This document shows, piece after piece, positions 1,681 to 16,397 of a DNA stretch of 17,813 nucleotides. The stretch lies in IMG/VR virus record IMGVR_UViG_3300009131_000001, positions 1 through 17,813 of that record, one strand, 5' to 3'. This DNA is from a virus. Its lineage: Duplodnaviria > Heunggongvirae > Uroviricota > Caudoviricetes. Every line of letters begins with the position of its first letter. Within the stretch, counting starts at the first letter, position 1. The notes beneath the pieces are model-generated. The model had not been told where the DNA came from. It worked only from the letters and a program-made list of their open reading frames with translations, and did no database searches. Position numbers and translations under genes: made by a program.

Positions 1681-4600
1681 ATGGGAAAAAAGAGATTAGA
1701 TACATATGCAGATTTTAACCCAACTCCTAAACAAAATACTCCTATTTTTGAAGGATTGGGGAAAGCCTATGCTAAGAGCACTTTAACATCCCCCGAATTT
1801 GCTGGGGATTATGGTTTAAGAGATACTACAAAGTATGATGTAGGAACTGTAGCAGAAGATATACCTAATATTGAAAGAATTAGAGGTGAAAGACAATCTG
1901 CATTATCTCAAGCAGGTGCTTTTGCTAATCAAGCAATTCTAGGTGAAGTAGTTGGCGGTACAATAATGACATTAGGAGCATTAGCGGAAATACCTGAGTT
2001 AGTATATAAGGGACTTACAGAAAGTGAATCTGAATTTAATAATGCTATATTTGAGGCCGGAGATAGCCTATCTAAGTGGACTAGGGAAGTGACACCTATA
2101 TACCAAACAGGTGATAGATTTAGTGATACTGGATGGTGGTTTCAAAATGGAGTAAGTGTTGCTAGTGCTGCTAGTATGCTGTTGCCTGGAGCAGGAGTTG
2201 CTAAAGGAGTTGGTAAGATAGGTCAACTAATGAAGTGGAGTAAAACTGCTACACAACTTGCTGAAACTGGGCTAGGAGCATTAACTATGCGTCATGCTGA
2301 AAATTTCAGAGAGGCTAATGGAATATTCCAATCTGTTTATAATGAAGCCCTTAATAAAGGATTAGATGAAGAAACTGCTAGGAAACATGCATCTGACGCA
2401 GCAGCATTAGACTACGGAGCTAACTATGCTAATCTAGCATTTGATGTAATCCAGTTAGGGGCTTTAATGAAGCCTACTAAAGCATGGACTAGGAATATAG
2501 GGGGATTAGAGTATGGCTTAGCTAAAGGTTTAGGTAAACTACCTGAATCTAAATTAGGCAGGGCTATGTATTGGTCTAAAGATAAGTTACTCCCACAACT
2601 AAGTGAAGGTGTTGAAGAAGTAGTAAATACAGTTTCTCAAAAAGAAGCTGAGAGATATGGTAGAATCCTTAATGACCCAACTAAAGATGATAAAACTGAT
2701 TTTACTCAAAGGTTAGGTAACTATTTAGGAGATGCAGAAACTATCGATAGCTTCATTTGGGGAGTTGCTGGAGGGGCAGCATTTCAAGGTATTGGTAACC
2801 TATTAGGTCTAGACCAATCTAATAATGTAGTACAGAATAAGTTAGCAGAGGTTGCTAAGAGACAGGATACTATGGGTAACTACCTATCCAATATCTCAGC
2901 AGCATCTAATAAGGATATTATTACAGATTCTGAGGGTAATATTATTGAAGATTTTAGAGATGCAGATAGAGCAGATGTTACTAGGTATATTGATAGTCAA
3001 ATGGATAAGATGGCATTTGACCTATCACAATCTGCTAGCAGAGCTGGTAATGTAGACTTTCTATTGGAGCATATTGAAAGTCCTGACTTTACTAAACAAA
3101 TGGTTGAATCTGGTATTACTACTCCAGAAGAGGCTAGAGAAAGAGTAAGTAAGATTAAGAATGAGATTGAATTAGGTGAGAAATTATATAAGCAATCCTT
3201 TAATAGATATTACAACCTAGATGTACCTCAAGAAGTTAAGAACTATCTGACAGATAAAACTACTGCTTTAGAGTATGGCAGAGCCAAAGTAGCAGAAATG
3301 AAGGATACTTACTCTAGAGAATATAATGATAACTATGCTCAAGATGAGTACTTAAAGGCTTATGGTAGTAATCCTGCTGTGCAAAATACCATTGATGTAA
3401 TGTCACATCAAATTGCAATTGAGGGGTTAACTCAACAGCTACAATCTGCTAAGAAAGAAGATAAGGAAGATATAAAAAATACTATAGGTAAGCTACAAAA
3501 TAGTTTACAGGATATACAATCAAATAGATTTGGTAATGTTGACCCAAATCTTATTAATCCATCTGTATATGAATCCAAAGCAAGACAACTGGTATTTCAA
3601 CATCAATTTGATAATTTATCAGAGGATATTGCTAAAGAACAATCTCCAGAGAATATTAAGAAAACTGAGAAAAAGGTTGAGAAAACTAAAGAGTCTATAA
3701 AATCAGGTATTGCTAATAATGAGGTAACTAAAAAGAAAGAAGAGAAATCTAAAAGAGTTGCTGCTAATAAATCTATTATTAAGGATAAGGAAGCATTTAC
3801 ACTCAAACCTGAAGAAATACCAACTCAAGAAGAAATTGATAGGACTTTCGAAACTGATGAGGGAGAAGTAGTAGATGTACTAGGAGAAGAAACTTCTACT
3901 AATCTAGAGTTAGTTGGTAAATATGAAGCAGACCCAAATTATGATTTAAAAGTTGGAGATTTACTTGAAGATGGTAGTATAGTACACAAAATAAATAAAA
4001 TCACTACTGGAATAAGAAAGGGTCAGATAGGTATAATTGAAATTAAATCTCCAGATGGTAAAGTTAGTCACCATGATTCCAGAAAAATAAGATTTGACAT
4101 ATACAGGTCTTCAGATGTAATTTCAGAACAAGAGTATAATCAATTTGTTAATACTGGAAAAGTTAGCAATGATAGATTACAATCTATTGCAAGTAAAGTA
4201 ATTAATAAAGAAGAATTATCTAGTAGGGAGAATTCCATATTTACTAATAAAACTGCTGATATTAATACTATTATTAGAGAAGTATCTGGAGATATAACAC
4301 CTCAATCATCAAGACTCCAAGAGTATAATACTAAGAAACAGGAATTAGATACTGAGAGAAATAACATTCTAAGTCAGTATGATGCATTTGAAGCAGAAAC
4401 AGGGGAAAAGTTTACTAAGGAAAGGAAAGAACTTGAAGAGGCTTACAGGGCTAATTTGGACAAGCTTAATAAGGAATATGTAGATGCTATTCCTGAAGGA
4501 GAGAAATTAGAGGCTGAAGTAGAAGATACTGTTGAAGAAACTTCTAATATTCCTGAAGGATTTAATGAGGATAGCGCTAAAGAGGTTAATAATGATATAA

Positions 4601-7600
4601 ACTCTATAGATGATGAATTTCTGGATAATGACAATATTAAAAAACTTAAGAATAGCTATAATGCAATGGCTAGACTGGATAGAGAATACGCTATCAGAAA
4701 TGGAAAATATCAAGAAGTTTCTAATGATTTACATCCTAACCTGTATAAACCTGTACTTAATCCTAACAAGTATGCTCCAGGTACTAAAATAACTCTAAGA
4801 GTTGCTGATAGAAATGATATTCCTGTAACTGACCCTGTTACTGGAATGATTACTACTTGGGGAAGTATTAAGAATAGTGTTAACTATAATGAGCAAGTTC
4901 CTATTGAAATAGTAGATGAGGATAATAATGTACTGGGGTACTACCATGATATTAACTGGACTAGTAATTCTGATAAGGTAGTTAATCCTTTAGAAGATTC
5001 CGAAGAGGCTAAAAAGATTAGAGATTATGTTGTAAGTAGGGGTGAAGTAGAAACTTCTATTACTGAAAATAGGTTTGGAGTTCTCAATAGAACAATGGAT
5101 AATAAAAAGTATCCAGTTAATCAAATAGTTGAAGACCCAAATGTAACTATTGCTGTTGCTGAAAATGCTGTAGAATTATTTGAAAAGAATAACTTTAACT
5201 TAGTTAATAACTTCTTTGCATCTCCTCTACATAAAGGATGGAATTATATGATTGTTCAAGTAGGTAAGAAGCTTGGTACAGATGCTTATATTGCATTACC
5301 TTTATCTAATATGACCTATGATGAGTTAAGTAAATCCAATGAAGACTTATTCCATAAGATTCATTATAGTGTTGAGGCTGCTATTAATATTTATGTAAAG
5401 AATGGGGATAACTTAACTACTGGTGAGAAGAGCCTGTATGAATCTATAAAATCCAAGTTAGGATTAGAATTAGCCTCTCCACAAGGAATTGTATCTTATC
5501 TAGGAGCATTTCTACATAATGATAAAAAATCACCTTTAGGAGAAAAGAGTCAGTTTAAATTTGAAAATGGGAATATAACCTTTAGAAGGAAGAAACCTAC
5601 TAAAGGACAGGCTACTCAATTCTTTGTAGGTAAAAATGTGGCAGATAAAGAAAAGATGTTCCAAATTCTACATGATAATATTGAGTCAATGCTAAAGGCT
5701 CAATTCTTTAATACTAGTAAAGAGTATGTAAATGAAGATGTTAACATCCCATTACTTACAGAATCTGGAGAAGTTGAGACAATGAACTACTTGCATATAG
5801 TTAAATCTGCTACCAAAACAAATATAATGGGTAAGGAAGTAGATACTAATCCAGATGGTAGTAAGGTATACTCATATACAGTTCAGAAGGTAATTAGATT
5901 TGATACTAGTTTTATTGAACCTAAACCTACTGGTACAGATGATACTACAGTAACTATAGTTAATGATATAGTAGAAGAGTCTGATGTAGAGTATGAAGAG
6001 TTAGAACCTATGGAATTCAACTTTGTTGATGATGGGTATTCTTTTGCTGTATCTGAAGATAAATTTGATAGCCTTAGTAATTCTTTAAACTCTTTACTGG
6101 TAAAGGATTTAGGTTTTGCTAGGCAAGATGATATTGTACAGTATATTACTGAGAGAAGTTTAAGTAAACTTTCTGAGAATAAAAGTATAAATATTAAGGC
6201 TACTACTGATGAGCTAAGAGATACTTTTAATAAGAATACTGCTACAGTAGAGTTTAATATAAAGAAGATTAAAACTAATATCCTTAAGGCTAAACAATTA
6301 AAGAAATCTGATGATGTTACTAAGTTTGAACAACAACTTACTAACCTAGAAAACTTTAAAACTTTACTTAGTCAAGTTAATGCTAGTTGGGATAACTTAG
6401 TGGGATTTGCTATTAAAAGGCTTGAAAGACTTAATGGTATTAAAGTAGTTGATAATCAAGATGATGATACTGAATTTGAAAATGATTTATTTGAAATAGA
6501 AGGAGATGAAAATGCTAACTGGAAAGAAAGTGATTTAACTACTGATAGAAAAAAATCTTTAAGTAGAGATGTTAAATTATTTTGTTCTGGTATAGTAGAT
6601 TTAAAGAATGATGGGCAACCTAATAAAACTTGGATTGGTACTAATAGGTTGATGTCTTTTGACACAGTTTATAATACTGTACAGGCATTAACTCCTAATC
6701 TCCCTCCTAATCTAGATGTCATTAAGGATGAACTATCTAAATCTGTAGATGCATTCCCTTGGTTAAATGATTTTATCAGTAAGTTAGACAATGCTAAGGA
6801 TAGTACTAAAAAGTCTATTGTAAAGGCTTTAACCAACTACTATAGCAATACAACTAGTTACAAGTATTCTAAAGATGATTCTGGAAATTACTTTGTTAGA
6901 GTATTTGAATCTGATGCTACTTCAATGGGAAAGGTTATCCTTAATAGTTGGGAATCAAACTTTAATAGAAGTAGGCTAGTTACCTACGACGAAACTTTAA
7001 AATTAGATGAATCTGCTGTAAATATTTGGTTAGATAGGTATGATAATTTAGTTAAAACTAAGGGGGTAAACGTATCTATTGAAGATGTAGTAGGACTGCT
7101 AAATGAAGTTGGAGTTGTGCTGTCAAATGGTGCAATGCAGGATATTAAGAATAATGGTATTGAAATCTCCAAAAGGAAAACTATTAAACTAAATACTATT
7201 CTTAGTGATTCCGCAAGTCCTTTAGTAGTAATTAAGGAGTTTTTAGAACTGAATAAAGGCAAAGAACTTACCACTAAACTAACAACCAATACTGCACTAA
7301 AGGTTCTTGCACAACTACAAAATAGATTTGAATCTAAACTCCACTCTAATTCTCAAAAGAGTGGTGGTAGAACCATTTTTAGTTATGGTAAGCCTAAATT
7401 CTTTATTAACAGGTTCAGAAGATTTAATGATTATGTGGAAGGTAAAGATACTGAGATGGGTAAAATACTCAACTCTCCTTTTGTAACTAACCTTTTATGG
7501 GCTAAAAGTTTAAAGGATATTCATAAGAGAGAGGCATTCATGGCAAACTTTGACTATGAAATTGCTGATTTGGAACCTATTAGTGAGTTAGGGGAGAAAA

Positions 7601-10600
7601 GTAGAAAAGGAAGAGAACTTACTAATGTATCTCCTGCTGAAGTCGAACTGTTTAGACTATCTGGATTAATGGCTAAGAGGGCTGATAAATCTGGTGGAAA
7701 GAATAGGGTTATTAGTCTAGTACACCCAACTACTTCAGATAAGAGTACCATTCATAGCATTACCTCAATTGCTGCTGATTTAAAGTTTAATCCTGATGGC
7801 AGTTTTACAGAGGAATCCTACAAGATACTATTTGATAATCTAATTCTCCCTGAGATAATTAGGATTAGACATTTTGAGGCTTTGAGGGATAAGGGTATTG
7901 ATATATCTAAATTTGAGGGATGGGCTGATGGATGGGATAAATTTATGACTATTCCTGAAATGAATTCTTATGAGGAACTATTTATAGGAGATAATCTTAA
8001 TCCAGACCTTGAATCTAACTATAGGGATATTATAGACAGAGTTCTTAAGAAGCATATTACAGCCTTAGTTGAAGAGAAAACTAGATTATGGGATAAGTAT
8101 TCTATAGGATTAGATATTAAAAATGCAAATAATAAGGTAGTTGAAACTAGTAAATTTCTAGATAATGATTATCTAGGATACCTAGCAAGTAAAGGTGCAA
8201 AGGATAATACTAGAGTTGCTGCTATATATGATATGGTAGGACAATACCTTATTGGAGATACTAATACTTGGGGATTATTTAATACTGACCCAGCACAATA
8301 CTTTGATAAGAAAGCATTAAAGGCTTGGAATGAGGGTAATAAAGATTTGGCAATTCAAAAAGTATTTGAAAATATGGGTAAGAGACTTGCGGCTGATATT
8401 GCCCCAGGTGAAGAATCTGTTGCTAATGATAGTGGTACAATTACCTATGCTTTTGTTAAAGACCCTAAAGTTACCTCACTAAGATTTGAGCAACTTAAGG
8501 AGCAGTTTGGAGATTCCATTGCTAATGCTTATGATGGAATGGATGGTACAGATGCTCAGGAATTTGTAACTCTTCAAGAACATTTATTTAATATGGATGC
8601 AGATGGATTACTTCCAGATGGAATGTATGATATTATTGCAAAAACTATTCAAGAAGAAATTAGTAAGGGAAATCATTACTATACAGATACTATCATAGCA
8701 AATTTAAATGCTATAAATCCTGATTTAGGAAGTAAGTTTAAAGAATTGGTATTCCAAGTTAAGAAGCCTGTTTATGTAGAAAATGTATTTGATAGTGATT
8801 TAGGAGTTGAAAGAAGAGTATATGTTAAATCTTCTGCTTATCCTCTAACTCCAGAATTATGTGCTCAAGTTCAAATGGATGATGTCAGAATAGCAATGGA
8901 GCAGCAAGGTATTCAAAGACTTGCATTTGCTACGGCAACTAAAGTTGGTAACTATAAAAAGAATATTGAACTATTTGATACTGATGGTAATGTTAAGCCT
9001 AACATAGATTTCTCTACTTCTAAGATGGTAGTTCCTAGAAGTGGGTTGAGAGATCAGATGCCTGTTCCTTATGATGAAATGAAGAAGGAAATTAAAAAGG
9101 TATCTCAAGCATCTAAGAATCTATTTGTTAATATTAAGGATGTTCCAGGAATGGCTGAACTAGAGCAGGAATACCTTAATACCTACCATGAAATATTTAA
9201 GGAGCAGTATGCTAAACTACAATCTGAAGTATTAAATGAAAATGACACACTAAATATTCAGAATCTTAGAGAAATACTACTCGAAGAGGCTGCTGGTAGA
9301 GGATATCCACTATCAGATTTCCAGATGCTAGAGTTAGATGAGAATTTAAGACTTCTACCATTTAGTCCTAATGCTGCTAAGTATGAATCATTACTTAACT
9401 CTATTGTTGAAAATAGGGTAGATAAGGTAATGTTACCTGGTAAATCTTTTGTACTATCTACCGAGTTAGGGTACAAGGTGAAACCTGCTGAAATACTAGA
9501 AGGTAATGCTGAAAATATATCTAAACTTAAAGGTAAAGGATTAGTTACCACTAGAAACTTTACTGGAGAATTACTACCACAAAGACTTGAAGATGGGGCA
9601 GTTAAGCCAGCACAAGTTATTATGCCATTTAAGTTTAGGGATAACAATGGTAATCTACTTCACATAGAGGACTTTATGGATGGGGATGGATTTGTAGATA
9701 CTAGTAAGTTACCAGAATCTGTACTTAAGTTGTTTGGAATGCGTATCCCTAACCAAGGGCCTAACTCACAATCTGCTATTGAGGTAGTTGGATTCATGCC
9801 TCATAGTGCTGGGGATGTAATAGTTGCAACTAAAGACTATCTAGCACAAATGGGTTCTGACTTTGACGTGGATAAGTTATATGCTTATATGTTTGAAACT
9901 GAATACAGAGATGGTAGAATAGTTAAGAAGGATTCTTTAAAGAATAAGATAGTAGATATCCACCTACAAATACATGCTAATCCAGACCCAAGAGTACAAA
10001 GACAAATTGCTAAACCTATTGGTGAGTGGAAACTTAAGGATATTGCTAATGAAGTAACTAAACTTAAACCTAAAGACCATACACCATTTAGTCCTGCTAG
10101 TGATAACTATCAGAAGATGAAGTTTATAAACGCGGTATCAGGTAAGGCAGGCACTGGGGTTTATAGTGTTGCTTCAATGTTTATTGCTAATATGCAAGGT
10201 AAGAGCCTTATATATAAAGTAACAGATGAACTAGGTAATAAAGTACCGATTCAACTAAATATAGGAAATACTGTATGGAATGGAGATATATCAAATATTT
10301 ACACAATAAGGACTCAAAATTTAATTGAAAATGCTGGTGGATACAATAAACTTAACGATGATGAAAAGAAGCAAATAACCTATAAATCTGAGGTTGTAGA
10401 GGGGCATCAATCAGTTGCTGTAGATAATGAGAAGTTACAGTTAATGGATAAAACCAATGATAATAAGTTTACCTTTAACTATACTATTGCTGCAATGTCT
10501 GCTGGATTTGAAGATGAGTTAGTATGGTTAAGAAGTCAGCCTATTATATTTGATTATGTTGAGGAATTACAGTTTCTTAAATCTCCGCTATCAGGCTTCT

Positions 10601-13600
10601 TTGGTAATGCTGAATCAGAGGCTTATCATAGAGTAGTTGAGAAGTATGGATTTACAGAAGATATGGTAGGTAAGTCTAATCCAGCATTACTTACTATTGA
10701 AAACATGAAGAAAAGTATTGCTGGCGGTAATGAGGGATTTAAGGGTATTCAGAATGCTGCAATAGAAACATTCTTAAAGTTACATGAGATAGGATTAAAG
10801 ATTCAATCTGTTACATCTGCTACCAATACAGATAGTAAGGGTATTGGTATTACTATGTTAAGTAACTATGCTAAACAACAGGCTGTTGAAAACTTAGTTA
10901 ATAGTCCTATTGAGAATGCTGAAAAGTTATTAGGCAACTTTAATGTAGATGGTAAATTGGTTGAACCCACTACAATAGCTGGATTTGCTACTAAATATGG
11001 TCTAGAAACTGCTAATAACTACTGGAGTAACCTATTCCCATATCAAACTAACTCAGTTCAAGAAATGTTTAATAAAATTCTTGAATTAACTGGTTCTGAA
11101 GAAGTTGGATATACAAGTAAGGCTAATACTCAACAGGATATTTGGACTGATTTTAAGAGTTATTTATTCAGTAGAAATGACTTAGGCATAGTAGAAGATG
11201 GTACTGATATAAATAGTGAAAGAGATAGGCTATTTATTGATAGAATGGATAAGAAAGGTAATGTAACTAAGAAATCCTTTATTGCTAAGATGCAAGAGAT
11301 ATCTGAATTACCTGAGATGAAGAGAAGACCTTTTATTAATAGGCTCAACTTTACTATTGATTACAATGATAATAAAAATTCTAGAGTTGGATTTAATGCA
11401 TCTGCTGCTGAAAATTTAGAGGAAATACAAATTTACCAGGATATTATAGACTTACTAGTTAATGACAGACCTATTCCAAATAGTGATATGACTTCTAGGC
11501 AAATGATGGAAGATTTAATTAAAACTCAGTATCTAGGTGGAGGTATTCAAGAGGCTATACAGTTTATTAAGTATATCCCAGCACAATACTACTACTTAAT
11601 TCCATTTGCTGAGAAATTATCAAATGTCTGGAATGAGTTGAATGTATCTAATAACACATGGTTAAACTTTAATAGTGATTCATTACCTAACTTTATTGAG
11701 CAGTATATCCAGCATAATCCTAATAAGATAACTGATATTAAGATAGAATCATTTAAAAAGGATGATAAGGGCAATACTATTATTACAGATAAATCCATAG
11801 TCACTAAGAAAGATGATGAGAAAACTTCAGAACCTTATGTAAAAAGATACAATCCTAAAGCAAAAGGTAATAAGACTGAGTTATTTAAGTTTACTGGAAA
11901 GTTCTGTATGAAAGGATACCCTATATACATTCAGATACCCACTCTAGGAGCATTTGGTATGAGTGAGTACAATGCTAATCTACCTCAAGGCAGTATGCAA
12001 ACCTCTCTACTAATGACTACTCCAACAGTTAATCCTATAGATGCTAAGAATACAGTAGATAACTCAAACAACAACTCTACTGAAATTAGCAATCCTTTAA
12101 CTAAACTAAATAAAGTTGAGGAAACTGCATATAATCTAGGATTATCTACAAAAGAAACTGATTTAAAATCAATTCTAGAGAAAACTAGTGTAACCACTTC
12201 TAATCCATACTACCAACTACTTGCTAGTGAAATGGTAAATGTGGTAGGTAATACTAAGATAAGTATTGATAATTCTGTAGCAGGCGATGGGATGTATAAT
12301 CATTTAGAAGATACGATTAAAATTAATGTGCCATCTATTCAAAATCCTGCTAAACTTGCTGATATTATTCTACATGAAGGAATTCACGGAATAACTTCAA
12401 AGACTATTAAACAATACTTATCAGATAAATCTAAGTTACCTGTTAAAGTAAGAGAAGCTTGCGCATCTTTAGATACTTTAAGAAATACTCTAAAGGATAA
12501 GGTAAAAGACACTAAAGAATATAAAGAATACTTGGCTAAACAATATAAACGTAAGAAAGGTGAAAAAATAGTGTTTAGTCTAAGTGAAGCATCTCAATTT
12601 GCGCCACTAGATGATTTATTTGAATTTGTTTCCTATAGTTTAACTAGACCTGAAACACAAAAGTGGTTAAATGGTATTGAGTATAAGAAAGACCAAACTG
12701 CTTTAGATAGATTTAAGGATTTACTTAATAAGATATTCTTTGCTTTAAGGGGTATGGGATTTGAAATTAAGAGTGGTACAGCATTGAGTACAGCATTTAA
12801 GAATTCTGTTGTAGTATTAAATGCTCAGGAACTATATGAATCTGATGCAACTGTAGTACCAATTACCAAACTATTTAATCAATATGGTATAGACTATAAA
12901 TTTACTTTAAAAGGTGATGTAGTTGTAAATGCTGAATACAAGCAACAAAATAAAGAAGAATATGAAGAATTGAATAAGAAAAATTGGAATAGTAAATACA
13001 ATGAATTATTGCAGGAAGAAAGTAAGATATTCAATAAAATAGAAGATACGGAAGAATTAAGTGATTATGAATTATTCCCCGGTATATTTGCTAATGAAGG
13101 GCAGAGAAAAGCTATAGATACCCTTAAAAATTTTATAAATTCTGATAGAGAAGTGTTTACATTAATTGGAAGGGCTGGAACTGGTAAAACTACTATTTTA
13201 AATAAAGTACTAAGCGTGATACCTAAATCTATTAGAGTAGGGGGAGCGGCAGTATCACATAAAGCTAAAAAAGTATTAGGTAAAAGTATTGGTAATGATA
13301 AGGTAAGTACTTTAGCATCAATGTTGGCAATAAAATTAGATGAATCTACTGGAAAATTTACTCCTGATGAATTTGCCAGAGAACAAGGTAAAGTTCCTAT
13401 TAAAAAATATAAATTAATAATTGTAGATGAAGCCTCTATGATTTCTGAGGAAATGTATAAAGAAATTCTTAATATGAAAAATCCTACTACTAAAGTAATT
13501 TTTGTGGGAGATAATGCACAACTTCAACCAATTGGTAGTGAGGAAGATAGTCCTGTATTTAGTATTAATGATAAAGCAAAATTAACTGAGATAACTAGAC

Positions 13601-14895
13601 AAGCGAAAAATAGTCCAATATTAAATGTAACTAGTAAAATTGCTCAAAATATAGAATCTAAAACTTCAATATTAAAAGTAATAAATAAGGAAGATAGAAT
13701 TGATCTCTATGATCCTACTACTAATTCTTCTTTAATATTTACAAAAAATGAGGAAAAAGCTATTGATAGTATTGTTAATGATATTAAAAATTCTCAGGGA
13801 GATGTAAACTATATTAAAGCAGTGACTTTTAATAATGAAGTGCATAATAGTCCACAAAGTGTTAAAAATTTAAATATTAAAATAAGAAATAAATTATGGG
13901 GAGAACAGTCTAAAAATCAATTTAATATTGGAGAAATTTTAACAGCCTATGATGGGTATAGAAGAGATATTGGGGCAGATACTGATGAACAACCAATATT
14001 TAATTCAGAAGATTATACAGTTAGCGGAATAGAGAATATAAAGAATCTTAGGCACACTATTTTAGTACAATCAAAAAAACAAGGTACGAGAACATTTACA
14101 TATAATTATGATATAGTAATTGTGTCTTTAAAGGATTCTGATGGTAATGATATTGTAGGGTATTCTGTGCCTGTAATTGCTGAGGCATCTAAAGAACAAT
14201 TTGAAAAAGATTTAAGACATTTGTGGAATACTGATAAGCAATTAGCATTTAAATTAAAAGAGCAGTTTGCTAATTTACACTATGGTTATGCAATAACTTC
14301 TCATAAAGCTCAAGGTTCTACTTATAAAAATGTATATGTATTTGAAGATAATATTTTAGGGAAATCTAATGCTAGTTCTATAGTAAATAAAAATAAATCT
14401 CTATATGTAGCTACTTCTAGAGCAAGTAATAAATTAGTGGTAGTAAGTAATGATAATATAAAATCTGATGCAACTGTATCTAAACCAACATTTGATACTT
14501 CTAAATTTACTCTTACCCCAGAAGATTTTACAGAAGGAGATATTATAGAATCACTTGCTGTATTTGAAGAAGAGCCATTTAACTCATTACCAAGTAGAAA
14601 GGATGTTTATAATCAGTTTAAAATTTGGGATGGTAAGTTAAATAGACCTGAGACTTGGAGTATGAATGTTGACAGAAATGCTTTAATTAAGATTGCTCAG
14701 AATATCAATAAGAATAATGAAGTATATTCTGCTAAAGTAGAGCAACAACAATTCTTAGATAAGGGTAAGTATTCTACTAAACAGTATATACAACTAACCA
14801 TGAAACCTGAATTTAATAACTTGAATACTAGAATGGAATACATAATGAATAATAAGGAGAAGTTGGAAGAGTTGATGAAGACTTGTAAGTATTAA
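1681..14895 (+). CDS. Giant virion-associated RNA polymerase polyprotein, crAss-like (hydrophobic N-terminal region + RNAP + zincin peptidase + SF1B helicase), 4404 aa
   Basis: Uninterrupted 4404-codon ORF in the standard code. Catalytic DxDxD loop GSDFDVDKLY (DFDVD 9859-9873) preceded by MRIPNQG (9739-9759), matching the RIP...DFDxDK signature of crAss-like two-barrel RNAPs. Zincin and helicase motifs lie downstream. Confidence 0.92.
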   Translation: MGKKRLDTYADFNPTPKQNTPIFEGLGKAYAKSTLTSPEFAGDYGLRDTTKYDVGTVAEDIPNIERIRGERQSALSQAGAFANQAILGEVVGGTIMTLGALAEIPELVYKGLTESESEFNNAIFEAGDSLSKWTREVTPIYQTGDRFSDTGWWFQNGVSVASAASMLLPGAGVAKGVGKIGQLMKWSKTATQLAETGLGALTMRHAENFREANGIFQSVYNEALNKGLDEETARKHASDAAALDYGANYANLAFDVIQLGALMKPTKAWTRNIGGLEYGLAKGLGKLPESKLGRAMYWSKDKLLPQLSEGVEEVVNTVSQKEAERYGRILNDPTKDDKTDFTQRLGNYLGDAETIDSFIWGVAGGAAFQGIGNLLGLDQSNNVVQNKLAEVAKRQDTMGNYLSNISAASNKDIITDSEGNIIEDFRDADRADVTRYIDSQMDKMAFDLSQSASRAGNVDFLLEHIESPDFTKQMVESGITTPEEARERVSKIKNEIELGEKLYKQSFNRYYNLDVPQEVKNYLTDKTTALEYGRAKVAEMKDTYSREYNDNYAQDEYLKAYGSNPAVQNTIDVMSHQIAIEGLTQQLQSAKKEDKEDIKNTIGKLQNSLQDIQSNRFGNVDPNLINPSVYESKARQLVFQHQFDNLSEDIAKEQSPENIKKTEKKVEKTKESIKSGIANNEVTKKKEEKSKRVAANKSIIKDKEAFTLKPEEIPTQEEIDRTFETDEGEVVDVLGEETSTNLELVGKYEADPNYDLKVGDLLEDGSIVHKINKITTGIRKGQIGIIEIKSPDGKVSHHDSRKIRFDIYRSSDVISEQEYNQFVNTGKVSNDRLQSIASKVINKEELSSRENSIFTNKTADINTIIREVSGDITPQSSRLQEYNTKKQELDTERNNILSQYDAFEAETGEKFTKERKELEEAYRANLDKLNKEYVDAIPEGEKLEAEVEDTVEETSNIPEGFNEDSAKEVNNDINSIDDEFLDNDNIKKLKNSYNAMARLDREYAIRNGKYQEVSNDLHPNLYKPVLNPNKYAPGTKITLRVADRNDIPVTDPVTGMITTWGSIKNSVNYNEQVPIEIVDEDNNVLGYYHDINWTSNSDKVVNPLEDSEEAKKIRDYVVSRGEVETSITENRFGVLNRTMDNKKYPVNQIVEDPNVTIAVAENAVELFEKNNFNLVNNFFASPLHKGWNYMIVQVGKKLGTDAYIALPLSNMTYDELSKSNEDLFHKIHYSVEAAINIYVKNGDNLTTGEKSLYESIKSKLGLELASPQGIVSYLGAFLHNDKKSPLGEKSQFKFENGNITFRRKKPTKGQATQFFVGKNVADKEKMFQILHDNIESMLKAQFFNTSKEYVNEDVNIPLLTESGEVETMNYLHIVKSATKTNIMGKEVDTNPDGSKVYSYTVQKVIRFDTSFIEPKPTGTDDTTVTIVNDIVEESDVEYEELEPMEFNFVDDGYSFAVSEDKFDSLSNSLNSLLVKDLGFARQDDIVQYITERSLSKLSENKSINIKATTDELRDTFNKNTATVEFNIKKIKTNILKAKQLKKSDDVTKFEQQLTNLENFKTLLSQVNASWDNLVGFAIKRLERLNGIKVVDNQDDDTEFENDLFEIEGDENANWKESDLTTDRKKSLSRDVKLFCSGIVDLKNDGQPNKTWIGTNRLMSFDTVYNTVQALTPNLPPNLDVIKDELSKSVDAFPWLNDFISKLDNAKDSTKKSIVKALTNYYSNTTSYKYSKDDSGNYFVRVFESDATSMGKVILNSWESNFNRSRLVTYDETLKLDESAVNIWLDRYDNLVKTKGVNVSIEDVVGLLNEVGVVLSNGAMQDIKNNGIEISKRKTIKLNTILSDSASPLVVIKEFLELNKGKELTTKLTTNTALKVLAQLQNRFESKLHSNSQKSGGRTIFSYGKPKFFINRFRRFNDYVEGKDTEMGKILNSPFVTNLLWAKSLKDIHKREAFMANFDYEIADLEPISELGEKSRKGRELTNVSPAEVELFRLSGLMAKRADKSGGKNRVISLVHPTTSDKSTIHSITSIAADLKFNPDGSFTEESYKILFDNLILPEIIRIRHFEALRDKGIDISKFEGWADGWDKFMTIPEMNSYEELFIGDNLNPDLESNYRDIIDRVLKKHITALVEEKTRLWDKYSIGLDIKNANNKVVETSKFLDNDYLGYLASKGAKDNTRVAAIYDMVGQYLIGDTNTWGLFNTDPAQYFDKKALKAWNEGNKDLAIQKVFENMGKRLAADIAPGEESVANDSGTITYAFVKDPKVTSLRFEQLKEQFGDSIANAYDGMDGTDAQEFVTLQEHLFNMDADGLLPDGMYDIIAKTIQEEISKGNHYYTDTIIANLNAINPDLGSKFKELVFQVKKPVYVENVFDSDLGVERRVYVKSSAYPLTPELCAQVQMDDVRIAMEQQGIQRLAFATATKVGNYKKNIELFDTDGNVKPNIDFSTSKMVVPRSGLRDQMPVPYDEMKKEIKKVSQASKNLFVNIKDVPGMAELEQEYLNTYHEIFKEQYAKLQSEVLNENDTLNIQNLREILLEEAAGRGYPLSDFQMLELDENLRLLPFSPNAAKYESLLNSIVENRVDKVMLPGKSFVLSTELGYKVKPAEILEGNAENISKLKGKGLVTTRNFTGELLPQRLEDGAVKPAQVIMPFKFRDNNGNLLHIEDFMDGDGFVDTSKLPESVLKLFGMRIPNQGPNSQSAIEVVGFMPHSAGDVIVATKDYLAQMGSDFDVDKLYAYMFETEYRDGRIVKKDSLKNKIVDIHLQIHANPDPRVQRQIAKPIGEWKLKDIANEVTKLKPKDHTPFSPASDNYQKMKFINAVSGKAGTGVYSVASMFIANMQGKSLIYKVTDELGNKVPIQLNIGNTVWNGDISNIYTIRTQNLIENAGGYNKLNDDEKKQITYKSEVVEGHQSVAVDNEKLQLMDKTNDNKFTFNYTIAAMSAGFEDELVWLRSQPIIFDYVEELQFLKSPLSGFFGNAESEAYHRVVEKYGFTEDMVGKSNPALLTIENMKKSIAGGNEGFKGIQNAAIETFLKLHEIGLKIQSVTSATNTDSKGIGITMLSNYAKQQAVENLVNSPIENAEKLLGNFNVDGKLVEPTTIAGFATKYGLETANNYWSNLFPYQTNSVQEMFNKILELTGSEEVGYTSKANTQQDIWTDFKSYLFSRNDLGIVEDGTDINSERDRLFIDRMDKKGNVTKKSFIAKMQEISELPEMKRRPFINRLNFTIDYNDNKNSRVGFNASAAENLEEIQIYQDIIDLLVNDRPIPNSDMTSRQMMEDLIKTQYLGGGIQEAIQFIKYIPAQYYYLIPFAEKLSNVWNELNVSNNTWLNFNSDSLPNFIEQYIQHNPNKITDIKIESFKKDDKGNTIITDKSIVTKKDDEKTSEPYVKRYNPKAKGNKTELFKFTGKFCMKGYPIYIQIPTLGAFGMSEYNANLPQGSMQTSLLMTTPTVNPIDAKNTVDNSNNNSTEISNPLTKLNKVEETAYNLGLSTKETDLKSILEKTSVTTSNPYYQLLASEMVNVVGNTKISIDNSVAGDGMYNHLEDTIKINVPSIQNPAKLADIILHEGIHGITSKTIKQYLSDKSKLPVKVREACASLDTLRNTLKDKVKDTKEYKEYLAKQYKRKKGEKIVFSLSEASQFAPLDDLFEFVSYSLTRPETQKWLNGIEYKKDQTALDRFKDLLNKIFFALRGMGFEIKSGTALSTAFKNSVVVLNAQELYESDATVVPITKLFNQYGIDYKFTLKGDVVVNAEYKQQNKEEYEELNKKNWNSKYNELLQEESKIFNKIEDTEELSDYELFPGIFANEGQRKAIDTLKNFINSDREVFTLIGRAGTGKTTILNKVLSVIPKSIRVGGAAVSHKAKKVLGKSIGNDKVSTLASMLAIKLDESTGKFTPDEFAREQGKVPIKKYKLIIVDEASMISEEMYKEILNMKNPTTKVIFVGDNAQLQPIGSEEDSPVFSINDKAKLTEITRQAKNSPILNVTSKIAQNIESKTSILKVINKEDRIDLYDPTTNSSLIFTKNEEKAIDSIVNDIKNSQGDVNYIKAVTFNNEVHNSPQSVKNLNIKIRNKLWGEQSKNQFNIGEILTAYDGYRRDIGADTDEQPIFNSEDYTVSGIENIKNLRHTILVQSKKQGTRTFTYNYDIVIVSLKDSDGNDIVGYSVPVIAEASKEQFEKDLRHLWNTDKQLAFKLKEQFANLHYGYAITSHKAQGSTYKNVYVFEDNILGKSNASSIVNKNKSLYVATSRASNKLVVVSNDNIKSDATVSKPTFDTSKFTLTPEDFTEGDIIESLAVFEEEPFNSLPSRKDVYNQFKIWDGKLNRPETWSMNVDRNALIKIAQNINKNNEVYSAKVEQQQFLDKGKYSTKQYIQLTMKPEFNNLNTRMEYIMNNKEKLEELMKTCKY
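1921..2811 (+). other. Gly/Ala-rich hydrophobic segments in the polyprotein N-terminus (possible membrane-inserting/ejection region)
   Basis: Three segments: FANQAILGEVVGGTIMTLGALAEIPELV (1921-2004), GVSVASAASMLLPGAGVAKGVGKIG (2149-2223) and SFIWGVAGGAAFQGIGNLLGL (2749-2811), in an otherwise highly charged protein. The membrane role is inference. Confidence 0.5.
4129..4329 (+). repeat. 12-bp direct repeat pair CAAGAGTATAAT (QEYN) bracketing a 63-codon segment
   Basis: Copies at 4129-4140 and 4318-4329, 189 bp apart, same frame. The sequence match is certain; its significance is not. Confidence 0.6.
8380..9900 (+). other. RNA polymerase catalytic core (two double-psi beta-barrel region); boundaries approximate
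   Basis: KRLAADIAPG (8380-8409), TDAQEF (from 8548), KSSAYPL (from 8827), ATKVG (to 8949), RIPNQG (9742-9759), DFDVD (9859-9873). The first four resemble crAss RNAP conserved blocks as I recall them; the last two are the firm evidence. Confidence 0.85.
12200..12720 (+). other. Zincin-like metallopeptidase domain within the polyprotein; boundaries approximate
   Basis: IILHEGIHG with HExxH at 12373-12387, preceded by G-x-Y-(strand) GMYNHLEDTIKIN and followed by a candidate third ligand Glu in LFEFVSYSLTRPETQKWL (Glu at 12622). Confidence 0.8.
12839..12855 (+). repeat. 17-bp direct repeat, left copy (AATCTGATGCAACTGTA)
   Basis: Identical to 14462-14478; both copies encode SDATV in the same frame. 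Confidence 0.95.
13090..14445 (+). other. SF1B (RecD2/Dda/Pif1-like) helicase domain fused in frame within the polyprotein
   Basis: Motifs in correct order: NEGQRKAI; I GRAGTGKT (13168-13191); Ia AAVSHKA; II IIVDEASM (13417-13440); III FVGDNAQLQPI (13501-13533); IV LTEITRQ (13582-13602); V YGYAITSHKAQGSTY (14281-14325); VI LYVATSRA (14401-14424). Confidence 0.92.
14462..14478 (+). repeat. 17-bp direct repeat, right copy (AATCTGATGCAACTGTA)
   Basis: Identical to 12839-12855; offset 1623 bp = 541 codons; lies about 13 codons after helicase motif VI. Confidence 0.95.
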
Positions 14896-14925
14896 TAGAT
14901 TGGGAGATTTCTCTCCCCTATTTTT
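14896..14925 (+). terminator. Intrinsic terminator after the RNAP polyprotein gene
   Basis: Stem GGGAGA (14902-14907), loop TTTC, TCTCCC (14912-14917), extendable by TAG/CTA with a bulge, then TTTTT (14921-14925); begins right after the TAA stop. Confidence 0.8.
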
Positions 14926-15309: not shown

Positions 15310-15768
15310 ATGGGAAAAGTTTACAATACTACAAAAAAAGTAGTGATAGATTCATCTACTGGGGAAGTGATTAGTGAAGAAAATACACAATGTTACAAAA
15401 CAAAAGAACCTGCATACATAAAAACATATGTGGATGATTTAGTTAAAATTACAAGTATTCCTGATAGGAATAAAAATGTTTTATTATGCATGTTAAAATA
15501 TGTTGGATATGGTAATGATATAGACATCTCAATTAGAATAAAAACTAAAATAGCAGTAGAATTAGGATGTGGAGTTGGGAATATTAATAATGCAATAAGT
15601 GCTTTAAAAAAAGCGGGTATTTTAATCAGCACATATAGAAGTTGCTACCTACTTAACCCAGATTATTTTGCTAAAGGGGACTGGATAGCAGTAAATAAAA
15701 TAAGAACTACTATTGAATATAGTAAAAATGGTAAGAAGATTATTAGTGATTTTATAAATACTAAATAA
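15310..15768 (+). CDS. RepL-like winged-helix DNA-binding protein (152 aa)
   Basis: VIDSSTGEV...EPAYIKTY N-terminus, HTH-like KIAVELGCGVGNINNAISALKKAGIL, and wing motif YLLNPDYFAKGDW, resembling the plasmid RepL (PF05732-type) family. A role in replication is not shown. Confidence 0.7.
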   Translation: MGKVYNTTKKVVIDSSTGEVISEENTQCYKTKEPAYIKTYVDDLVKITSIPDRNKNVLLCMLKYVGYGNDIDISIRIKTKIAVELGCGVGNINNAISALKKAGILISTYRSCYLLNPDYFAKGDWIAVNKIRTTIEYSKNGKKIISDFINTK

Positions 15769-16397
15769 GAATAGTATGATATATTTAATGCAAAATAGAG
15801 ATTTCTTTAAAATCGGATATACTGATAATTTGGAAGGTAGATTATCTTCTTTGCAAACAAGTAACCCAGAAACTATATTATTAGCTGTTATAGATGGGGA
15901 TATTAAAGAAGAGAAATTATTACACAAAAAATTTGAGAAATATAGATATTCTAATGAATGGTTTTTTAAAAGTATAGATATATACGAATATTTTAAAAAT
16001 ACTACAAATGATAATAAATATTCAAATTTATCAACTAATATATCAATTCCAGTAGATCCTAAATCTAAGATATTTTCTGATGTAAGAGCATTTAGATTTT
16101 TATTATACTTTGGTACATTTATGTCAGAATCAAGGAGAAATCATTGTGGTAATATTCTATATATTGATAATTTTATCAAGAGTTATGTTTGTAAAATGAT
16201 GCATATAGAAATACCTTCTTTTAGAAATACTTTATCTTACATGATTCATAATAATATGATGGTAAAACACCCCTCTTTAAAAAATACATACATGTTAAAT
16301 CCAAATTATTTCTATAAAGGAGAATACAGTCATCATATTAAGTGTATACAGTATTATAATACGTTAGAAAATAATAAATTAGAAGAATAATATGATA
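15767..16397 (+). repeat. 15-bp near-perfect direct repeat pair spanning two start codons
   Basis: AAGAATAGTATGATA (15767-15781) and AAGAATAATATGATA (16383-16397), 14/15 identical, 616 bp apart; each contains the ATG of the following gene. Confidence 0.7.
15776..16390 (+). CDS. T5orf172/MUG113-type GIY-YIG nuclease domain fused to a C-terminal RepL-like winged helix (204 aa)
   Basis: N-terminal IYLMQ...FKIGYT...RLSSLQTSNP...EKLLHKKF...R..NEWF pattern; C-terminal FRNTLSYMIHNNMM...YMLNPNYFYKGEY parallels the upstream protein's YLLNPDYFAKGDW. Confidence 0.75.
   Translation: MIYLMQNRDFFKIGYTDNLEGRLSSLQTSNPETILLAVIDGDIKEEKLLHKKFEKYRYSNEWFFKSIDIYEYFKNTTNDNKYSNLSTNISIPVDPKSKIFSDVRAFRFLLYFGTFMSESRRNHCGNILYIDNFIKSYVCKMMHIEIPSFRNTLSYMIHNNMMVKHPSLKNTYMLNPNYFYKGEYSHHIKCIQYYNTLENNKLEE

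Follow-up and report, generated by a model that had tools for sequence, protein, structure and literature searches.

A Dda-type helicase module bounded by a 17-bp direct repeat within the giant RNA polymerase gene of a crAss-like phage, and empty alleles of the site in related phages

The stretch of DNA analysed here, called the window, is the first 17.8 kb (17,813 nucleotides [nt]) of IMG/VR virus record IMGVR_UViG_3300009131_000001, a complete crAss-like phage genome of 99.7 kb with direct terminal repeats and a GC content of 30.5%. A single open reading frame (ORF) on the plus strand, 1681-14895, encodes a protein of 4404 amino acids (aa), designated P0001, which joins an RNA polymerase (RNAP) core to a superfamily 1B (SF1B) helicase. 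The helicase occupies a block that is bounded by a perfect 17-bp direct repeat and that is missing, together with one copy of the repeat, from close relatives. The features of the gene, all on the plus strand and numbered as in the window, are as follows; relatives are denoted by P numbers (proteins) and L numbers (contigs), and pLDDT is the predicted local distance difference test score of an AlphaFold2 model.

1681-14895, plus strand: giant ORF P0001, putative virion RNAP/polyvalent protein of a crAss-like phage; a single ORF, matching PHROG 16227 (virion structural protein)
8278-11130, plus strand: two-barrel RNAP core, aa ~2200-3150, from a profile match to PDB 6VR4
9859-9873, plus strand: DFDVD catalytic motif, aa 2727-2731, seen in the sequence
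12373-12387, plus strand: HEGIH motif (HExxH, zincin-like), aa 3565-3569, upstream of the cassette; seen in the sequence, with H-E..H invariant in close relatives
12839-12855, plus strand: left 17-bp repeat, aa 3720-3725, ESDATV; closes a predicted disordered stretch, aa 3708-3725 (pLDDT <50)
12856-14461, plus strand: inserted block proper, 535 codons, which with one repeat copy makes up the 1623-bp indel; absent from L007, L010, L011, L012 and P0002-P0005
12862-13044, plus strand: small folded domain, aa 3728-3788, predicted as three beta strands and a long helix (AlphaFold2 model, pLDDT 84-91)
13069-14445, plus strand: SF1B (Dda/RecD2-type) helicase, aa 3797-4255, from Pfam, PHROG, PDB sequence matches and Foldseek
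13168-13191, 13423-13440, 13507-13536, 14296-14325 and 14401-14424, plus strand: helicase motifs GRAGTGKT, DEASM, GDNAQLQPIG, TSHKAQGSTY and LYVATSRA, respectively, seen in the sequence
14462-14478, plus strand: right 17-bp repeat, aa 4261-4266, KSDATV; opens a predicted disordered linker, aa 4262-4300
14596-14892, plus strand: folded C-terminal tail, aa 4306-4404, ending ...CKY; kept in filled and empty alleles (pLDDT 75-93)
14902-14917, plus strand: terminator-like hairpin right after the stop codon, seen in the sequence

P0001 has the two-barrel core with a DFDxD catalytic loop and the homology to gp66 of phage phi14:2 that define a gp66-type RNAP. When a profile built from 20 homologues (aa 2200-3150) was compared with PDB, it matched 6VR4 (phi14:2 gp66) over chain residues 926-1843 with E=2.1e-92; the core as a single sequence gave no match in PDB, so that the profile was required. 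Hints of virion packaging are at the level of annotation (PHROG 16227 and a 'virion structural protein' of a Flavobacterium phage), and it is by analogy with phi14:2 gp66 only that P0001 would be packaged in the virion and injected with the DNA.

Toward the C-terminus, the SF1B motif set (Walker A, Walker B DExx, motif III GDxxQLxP, V, and VI) is found in order over aa 3830-4248. Pfam families AAA_30 (99 bits, aa 3805-4008) and UvrD_C_2 (34 bits, aa 4201-4255) are both matched above cut-off, the Dda-like helicases of PHROG 325 match the block with E=3e-75, and DSH9, Dda, and RecD2 are returned as PDB sequence matches. Furthermore, an AlphaFold2 model covering aa 3640-4404 (mean pLDDT 80.9) has the SF1B fold, two RecA-like domains plus accessory domains, with pLDDT mostly 85-95 over aa 3797-4255, and the top Foldseek matches are DSH9, T4 Dda (3UPU, template modelling [TM] score 0.72-0.73), and RecD2. 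Judged from these matches and from the model, the fused segment is a complete SF1B helicase, with a predicted unwinding activity. It is the sole SF1 helicase in the 99.7-kb genome, where the block is single-copy. A first-pass annotation, made from the letters of the window, had placed within the interval a linker of ~75 aa followed by the entire helicase; the helicase is indeed complete, but the "linker" is a folded small domain of ~60 aa. This domain is conserved beside the helicase in L008/P0052, P0093, P0075, and L014, and it corresponds to no Pfam family. Both repeats fall in low-confidence linkers next to well-folded domains of the model, according to which the edges of the block coincide exactly with domain boundaries, within a single long disordered linker.

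Neither Pfam nor PHROG revealed a recombinase in the block, only helicase families. Terminal inverted repeats are likewise missing, an 8-nt palindrome being the best inverted match between the two ends, and promoter-like matches before the helicase are not above the shuffled expectation. Several kinds of mobile element were considered and set aside. A transposon or insertion sequence would share with the block the direct target duplication and the one-copy empty sites, but the block has no transposase or integrase, has no terminal inverted repeats, and is single-copy. An intein or homing element does not fit either, as Pfam finds no Hint or LAGLIDADG domain in P0001 and the block is translated in-frame as a helicase (no Rfam intron search was made). 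Finally, for a Helitron RepHel protein, Pfam gives no Rep family, and a Helitron transposase appears in Foldseek only as a distant helicase-fold match at rank 43.

The repeat, AATCTGATGCAACTGTA, is present in exactly two copies, at 12839-12855 and 14462-14478, with no further copy at two or fewer mismatches. As the first-pass annotation had reported, both copies are exact, and they have a spacing of 1623 bp (541 codons), share one codon phase within ORF 1681-14895, and encode ESDATV and KSDATV; deleting one copy and the interval gives a 3863-aa ORF with the predicted junction ...ELYESDATV|SKPTFD.... The same annotation had put the number of chance 17-mer repeats below 0.1 per window, which is too low. 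The genome contains 11 direct repeats of at least 17 nt besides its terminal repeat, which gives ~0.35-0.4 expected per window, and shuffles give an expectation per ORF of 0.07 (codon shuffles) or 0.32 (synonymous shuffles). The window itself holds three exact 17-mer direct repeats in all, each an in-phase coding match. The other two, 1082-1098/6878-6894 and 6998-7014/13331-13347, are in-phase coding coincidences that serve as internal controls; a crossover between the copies of the latter pair would remove the RNAP core. Thus, the 17-mer by itself is weak evidence. A resemblance upstream of both copies (VVVLNAQ... and VVVSNDN...), which could be taken for a longer, old duplication, is explained by the independently conserved helicase end KLVxxSN and the backbone VVxxNAxELYES.

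It is the comparison with relatives that gives the repeat its meaning. All of the informative relatives came from protein collections and from the corresponding ENA, Logan, and NCBI contigs; searches of IMG/VR and JGI metagenomes for close relatives with peptide patterns, a degenerate left-flank pattern, and a right-junction pattern produced no matches. The closest full-length relatives, P0002-P0005, are 75-77% identical to P0001 in the RNAP core and 56-61% in the 570 aa before the repeat. They have no helicase and read ...NAQELYESD(I/V)(T/I)I-(D/T)KPKFD..., that is, the left flank, a single copy of the motif, and the right flank. In addition, four short metagenomic contigs (L007, L010, L011, and L012) carry an empty site with one repeat copy, and their flanks have 80-93% DNA identity to the window. 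L007 aligns to window positions 12549-12855 (89%) and then to 14462-14552 (92%), and the overlap between these alignments is precisely the 17-mer, without a base change; the same 17-nt overlap is seen with L010, L011, and L012. The 17-mer is unchanged in L007, L010, and L011 and has two base differences in L012. The first-pass annotation had named an empty allele with a single repeat copy as a test of its proposal, and such an allele is found at the predicted junction in all eight of these sequences, with the repeat residues single-copy in each. From this coincidence of the alignments, rather than from 17-mer statistics, the repeat is the junction of the indel; its significance lies in the base-exact match to that junction, not in its length. 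This carries a caution for scans of this kind, since perfect in-frame 17-mers are not unusual where a phage gene is AT-rich and biased in its codons, and the empty-allele comparison carries the finding.

When 68 other helicase-bearing relatives were examined for a left/right duplication bracket, four reached p<=0.05 versus 3.4 expected. Because these relatives show no such tendency, the 17-bp duplication is taken to be a lineage-specific scar of one event rather than something built into the module. For P0007 (L013:4001-14410), ETENTI (GAA AAT ACT ATA) before the helicase faintly recurs as QNTQNTL (CAA AAT ACA CTA) after it, a recurrence that is not significant in the systematic test.

The C-terminal tail is retained whether or not the helicase is there. 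Its identity to the window is 64-77% in P0002-P0005, and it is recognisable in P0007, P0027, P0119, and P0081. As the events land in a disordered linker before this conserved tail, a complete helicase can be added or removed without breaking an essential 13-kb gene. The tail, which consists of beta hairpins and helices, ends in CK/CKY and is conserved among giant proteins that are only very distantly related, whether or not they have a helicase; no family was found for it. It may be the part that is needed for packaging or ejection.

A second filled allele was found in an independent assembly. L008 has the left junction ...ELYETDATV|IPVTKLF..., followed by 476 nt of the cassette at 83% DNA identity. 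Outside this region, L008:1-226 diverges from the backbone, and positions 845-1028, after the cassette, resemble window positions 12203-12386 (72%); the break corresponds to window position 13331, the start of another of the 17-mers. L008 may be an assembly chimera or else an allele that has been rearranged and broken. The 60 aa that precede the repeat separate two backbone types: type A comprises the window (filled) and L007, L011, and L012 (empty), and type B comprises L008 (filled) and L010 (empty). One sample yielded both L008 and L010, whose shared flank is 96% identical; because the flanks differ by 4%, they are different strains and not one clone flipping. The first-pass annotation had suggested that the acquisition was recent. 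This is not sustained, given the same filled junction in a second backbone type, a cassette with only 83% DNA identity, and the conservation of the 17-mer in three of the four short empty contigs. Since the 17-mer itself is conserved across relatives, the perfect identity of its two copies does not date the event.

One explanation for this distribution is that the 17-mer is an attachment (att)-like core, so that the cassette would be reversible, excising (possibly as a circle) and re-inserting between co-infecting phages, or, as the first-pass annotation had offered as an alternative to recent acquisition, would act as a population switch between RNAP with and without the helicase. Such a system would account for a 17-mer that stays constant in most of the short empty contigs though the flanks have diverged, for filled and empty states with the same junction in both backbone types and even in one sample, and for homing-endonuclease-like genes that adjoin or sit inside the variable region. 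However, the block neither contains nor adjoins a recombinase, and it has neither a second copy nor inverted repeats; where filled and empty contigs coexist, they belong to different strains; and homologous recombination in the flanks accounts for the pattern without a special site. We consider an att-like site quite unlikely.

The block also differs from the rest of the ORF in composition. Over the 541 codons, GC is 27.4% (versus 32.7% elsewhere in the ORF), GC at third codon positions (GC3) is 12.6% (versus 21.0%), and the ratio of lysine codons AAA:AAG is 52:8 (versus 180:172); for 12856-14461 proper, the GC3 is likewise 12.6% and the ratio is 51:8. No other stretch of 541 codons in the ORF deviates as far in codon usage (G=125 for the block versus 50.5 +/- 21). 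Hand counts of AAA:AAG given in the first-pass annotation for parts of the helicase, the RNAP core, and the tail (16:2, 7:9, and 3:8) were exactly right on recount, and the codon shift that it described is real. Its expectation that the breakpoints would coincide with the repeats holds only approximately: the maximum-likelihood breakpoints, aa 3817-4297 for GC3 and aa 3786-4275 for lysine codons, match the helicase well but the repeats only roughly. Codon usage in the genome as a whole is bimodal. Minus-strand early/replication genes (20-57 kb) have a GC3 of 0.12-0.20 and use AAA for 70-90% of lysines; plus-strand late genes have a GC3 of 0.20-0.30 and use AAA for 30-70%.

Phylogenetic comparison indicates that the helicase and the backbone have had different histories. 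A tree of RNAP cores joins the window, with support 100, to P0002-P0005, which lack a helicase; the clade that encloses this group has as its other helicase-bearing members P0008, P0011, P0012, P0015, and P0134, whose helicases belong to a different deep clade. The helicase tree places the window next to P0007 (67-68% identity), and the P0007 backbone is only 30-39% identical. The helicase-to-core distance ratio for the window versus P0007 is ~0.37, compared with ~1-1.7 for the vertical pairs P0085/P0077 and P0145/P0121. Given this tree conflict and the low distance ratio, helicase modules have moved between giant-gene lineages. The cassette-like, in-frame indel that was originally proposed is real, and its helicase has a history of its own. 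Many giant proteins carry a helicase near the C-terminus, and the closest relatives of the window helicase (45-67% identity) are other helicases embedded in giant proteins plus a few stand-alone ORFs adjoining such genes. Within L014:2-2208, the backbone gene stops right after the small beta domain, and the helicase (54% identical) is a separate ORF with a 4-nt overlap, an arrangement that suggests how fused and unfused forms interconvert. A recent transfer from p-crAssphage (Carjivirus communis) was also considered, as 68 nt (14274-14341) are 88-90% identical to its free-standing gp14 helicase. It was rejected: the proteins are only 28% identical overall, and the 68 nt are the conserved motif V-VI region of two AT-rich genomes.

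Taken together, these results have led to the hypothesis that the helicase block is a horizontally acquired domain module, which was inserted by illegitimate recombination with a 17-bp duplication and is now gained and lost among related phages. We regard this as the probable explanation. In this model, a module consisting of the small beta-rich domain and the Dda-type SF1B helicase would have come from another phage lineage and entered the linker by illegitimate or short-homology recombination, with recipient breakpoints that overlap by 17 bp and so duplicate that stretch. The entry could have involved, for instance, a pair of breakpoints, a switch of template, or homologous crossing-over at one end and illegitimate joining at the opposite end. 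Insertions into the linker would survive only when in-frame, since the C-terminal tail has to be retained. Later interconversion of filled and empty alleles in types A and B could proceed by precise deletion between the repeats and/or, in co-infections, by homologous recombination in flanks that are 80-96% identical.

Several observations weigh against this hypothesis. The helicase block, though sited in a late gene, matches the early/replication class of its own genome, and the P0007 helicase stands out from its host gene by the same low GC3 and AAA bias; the composition is thus a sign of a replication-gene-like source and not of a recent date. Moreover, L008, the second filled allele, is a 1-kb patchwork contig that is reliable only over 634 nt, and the right junction of the filled allele is present only in the window itself. 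Since metagenomic assemblies can mis-join at repeats, the latter might be taken to mean that the arrangement is an assembly chimera or pure coincidence and that the helicase is not truly in the gene. This is hardly credible, as assembly k-mers are much longer than 17 bp, the frame is preserved with exact domain boundaries, the left junction is repeated in an independent assembly, and the helicase is continuous with the tail in P0007, P0027, P0119, and P0081.

A further difficulty is the direction of change. The contig that is nearest by flank (L007, 93%) is empty, and the more distant L008 (76% in the flank, 83% in the cassette) is filled, a pattern that, in these alignments, fits at least one deletion and fits loss as well as gain. 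Furthermore, helicases are found at or near the same position in the distant relatives P0007, P0027, and P0093, so the module could be old in the lineage. Gain and loss are both compatible with the present data. In an account that takes up these observations, the helicase would be ancestral at this site in the whole group, the repeat would have arisen by chance or local convergence, and the empty alleles would all be deletions, with no insertion at all. Such an account is helped by the finding that the P0007 helicase starts in the same linker, right after ETENTI, the homologue of ESDATV, and by the fact that chance does produce in-phase, exact 17-mers within the ORF, as the 6998/13331 pair demonstrates. 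Nevertheless, a chance repeat would have to hit both edges of the indel base-exactly and duplicate residues of which each of the eight empty alleles has a single copy. In addition, the helicase and backbone trees disagree, with a window-P0007 distance ratio well below that of vertical pairs; the four closest full-length backbones are all without the module; and no flanking duplication accompanies the helicase in the other filled lineages. An ancestral helicase is consequently rather unlikely in our view, and horizontal acquisition with target duplication is preferred.

The helicase site is not the only variable position at this end of the gene, as the following features indicate.

14548-14562, plus strand: second variable site, which follows ESLA ~30 aa beyond the helicase site and is empty in the window; the similarity of relatives to the window stops at 14552-14562
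15776-16390, plus strand: T5orf172/MUG113 (GIY-YIG clan) ORF, putative homing-endonuclease-like (Pfam PF13455, E=3e-10; PF10544, E=8e-8)

The second site is occupied by an ART-PolyVal domain in P0003/L004, L007, L010, and L012/P0177 and by an HExxH-containing domain in L011; it is empty in P0002, P0004, and P0005 as well as in the window. The 200-aa cassette at L004:13840-14445 is bracketed by TCATTAGCA and TCTCTAGCA, a diverged 9-nt repeat that encodes SLA on both sides. The T5orf172/MUG113 ORF lies 880 bp downstream of the giant gene, between a RepL-like gene and a 1233-aa gene. It resembles a mobile endonuclease gene in its behaviour, being present in L006 and absent from L002, L003, and L004. 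Immediately after the giant gene, a small ORF (15310-15768) matches Pfam RepL (E=1.6e-8) and is conserved in relatives. A further endonuclease gene, encoding GIY-YIG and NUMOD3 domains, splits the giant gene of L012 inside the ART-PolyVal region (L012:486-1151): the upstream ORF ends ...IIDRKC*, and a new ORF starting MSCIITYK... contains the full ART (ADP-ribosyltransferase) domain and the tail, with the same ends in P0058 and P0123. This split could be a homing-endonuclease insertion or an intron. Because both the second site and the endonuclease insertions vary, the 3' end of the giant gene is a recombination hot spot for cargo domains, as expected of "polyvalent proteins" (PMC5512222).

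A functional view of the repeated residues was also considered. SDATV could have a role in the protein, such as marking where a polyprotein is processed to free the helicase, and selection could have kept it on both sides; cleavage of fused crAss-like RNAP polyproteins is presumed (bioRxiv 10.1101/2020.03.07.982082), both copies lie in exposed, predicted disordered linkers, and the ART cassette of the second site is likewise bracketed, by SLA and SLA. Yet selection acting on a five-residue peptide leaves the identity of the copies at all five synonymous positions unaccounted for, no such bracket is seen in other lineages that bear a helicase, and the empty alleles keep one copy with nothing to release. 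A processing site is thus very improbable. A broader speculation, which we think unlikely, is that the disordered C-terminal linker serves as a landing pad at which helicase, ADP-ribosyltransferase, and metallopeptidase-like domains are swapped as recombinase-less, in-frame cassettes through short joint sequences, with the 17-mer as an att-like core from which the helicase cassette is precisely excised, possibly as a circle, and re-inserted into co-infecting empty alleles. The homing-endonuclease genes of the region might stimulate such exchange. If this were true, the landing pad would be a domain-level counterpart of gene-cassette systems.

To our knowledge, giant virion-delivered crAss-like proteins vary in their domains, and we know of no case so far in which the DNA-level route of gain and loss has been resolved. 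This locus, with a filled allele, empty alleles, and a duplication scar, offers a base-exact case of domain gain or loss in giant phage proteins. As for function, phi14:2 gp66 can transcribe DNA that is single-stranded or denatured but not double-stranded DNA in vitro, and QDE-1, its eukaryotic homologue, needs a helicase and RPA (bioRxiv 10.1101/2020.03.07.982082). By analogy, the fused helicase would be delivered with the polymerase and would open double-stranded phage DNA as a template; a 5'-to-3' direction is predicted. Since close relatives exist without it, the fused helicase must be dispensable or replaceable, and related phages with and without a fused Dda-type helicase constitute a natural experiment on whether a co-injected helicase supplies the template.

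The nearest known systems are the fused RNAPs of crAss-like phages, represented by phi14:2 gp66. P0001 has in common with them the core profile of 6VR4, the DFDVD motif, a giant multidomain protein, an HExxH motif, and a crAss-like genome of ~100 kb. However, phi14:2 gp66 is 2180 aa long and has no helicase, whereas the only SF1 helicase of the window genome is inside the RNAP gene. The main text of Drobysheva et al. and of Yutin et al. 2021 (PMC7886860), as distinct from figures and supplements, describes no SF1B helicase domain in the RNAP gene, and an SF1 helicase is listed there among the genes of the replication block. These texts give no base-level junctions, and a helicase domain inside a crAss-like RNAP gene may be new here, with an earlier depiction possible in those figures or supplements. 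P0001 also resembles the polyvalent proteins (Iyer, Burroughs, Anand, de Souza, and Aravind 2017, PMC5512222), which are very large, are presumably co-delivered with DNA, and have variable enzymatic domains: RNAP, HExxH motif, and helicase are in one ORF, and relatives swap ART-PolyVal or other cassettes. That work notes helicase modules in some polyvalent proteins, discussing SNF2 or UvrD types, and covers architectures rather than DNA-level junctions; the window adds a Dda-type SF1B helicase, a base-resolved junction, a 17-bp duplication, and empty alleles.

The helicase itself has all of the motifs of T4 Dda and Deinococcus RecD2 (PDB 3UPU and 3E1S) and a predicted fold with a TM score of 0.73 to Dda; it differs in that identity is only 20-29% and in that it sits in a putative virion protein with an extra N-terminal beta domain. 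Finally, indels at short direct repeats, which arise by illegitimate recombination, slipped mispairing, or homology-facilitated illegitimate recombination, are marked by duplicated target flanks, the lack of a recombinase and of inverted repeats, and one-copy empty sites. The window shares all of these traits. It differs in that the insert is an exact, in-frame protein-domain unit inside a 13-kb ORF rather than a gene or islet, and in that both states of the locus encode functional-looking proteins.

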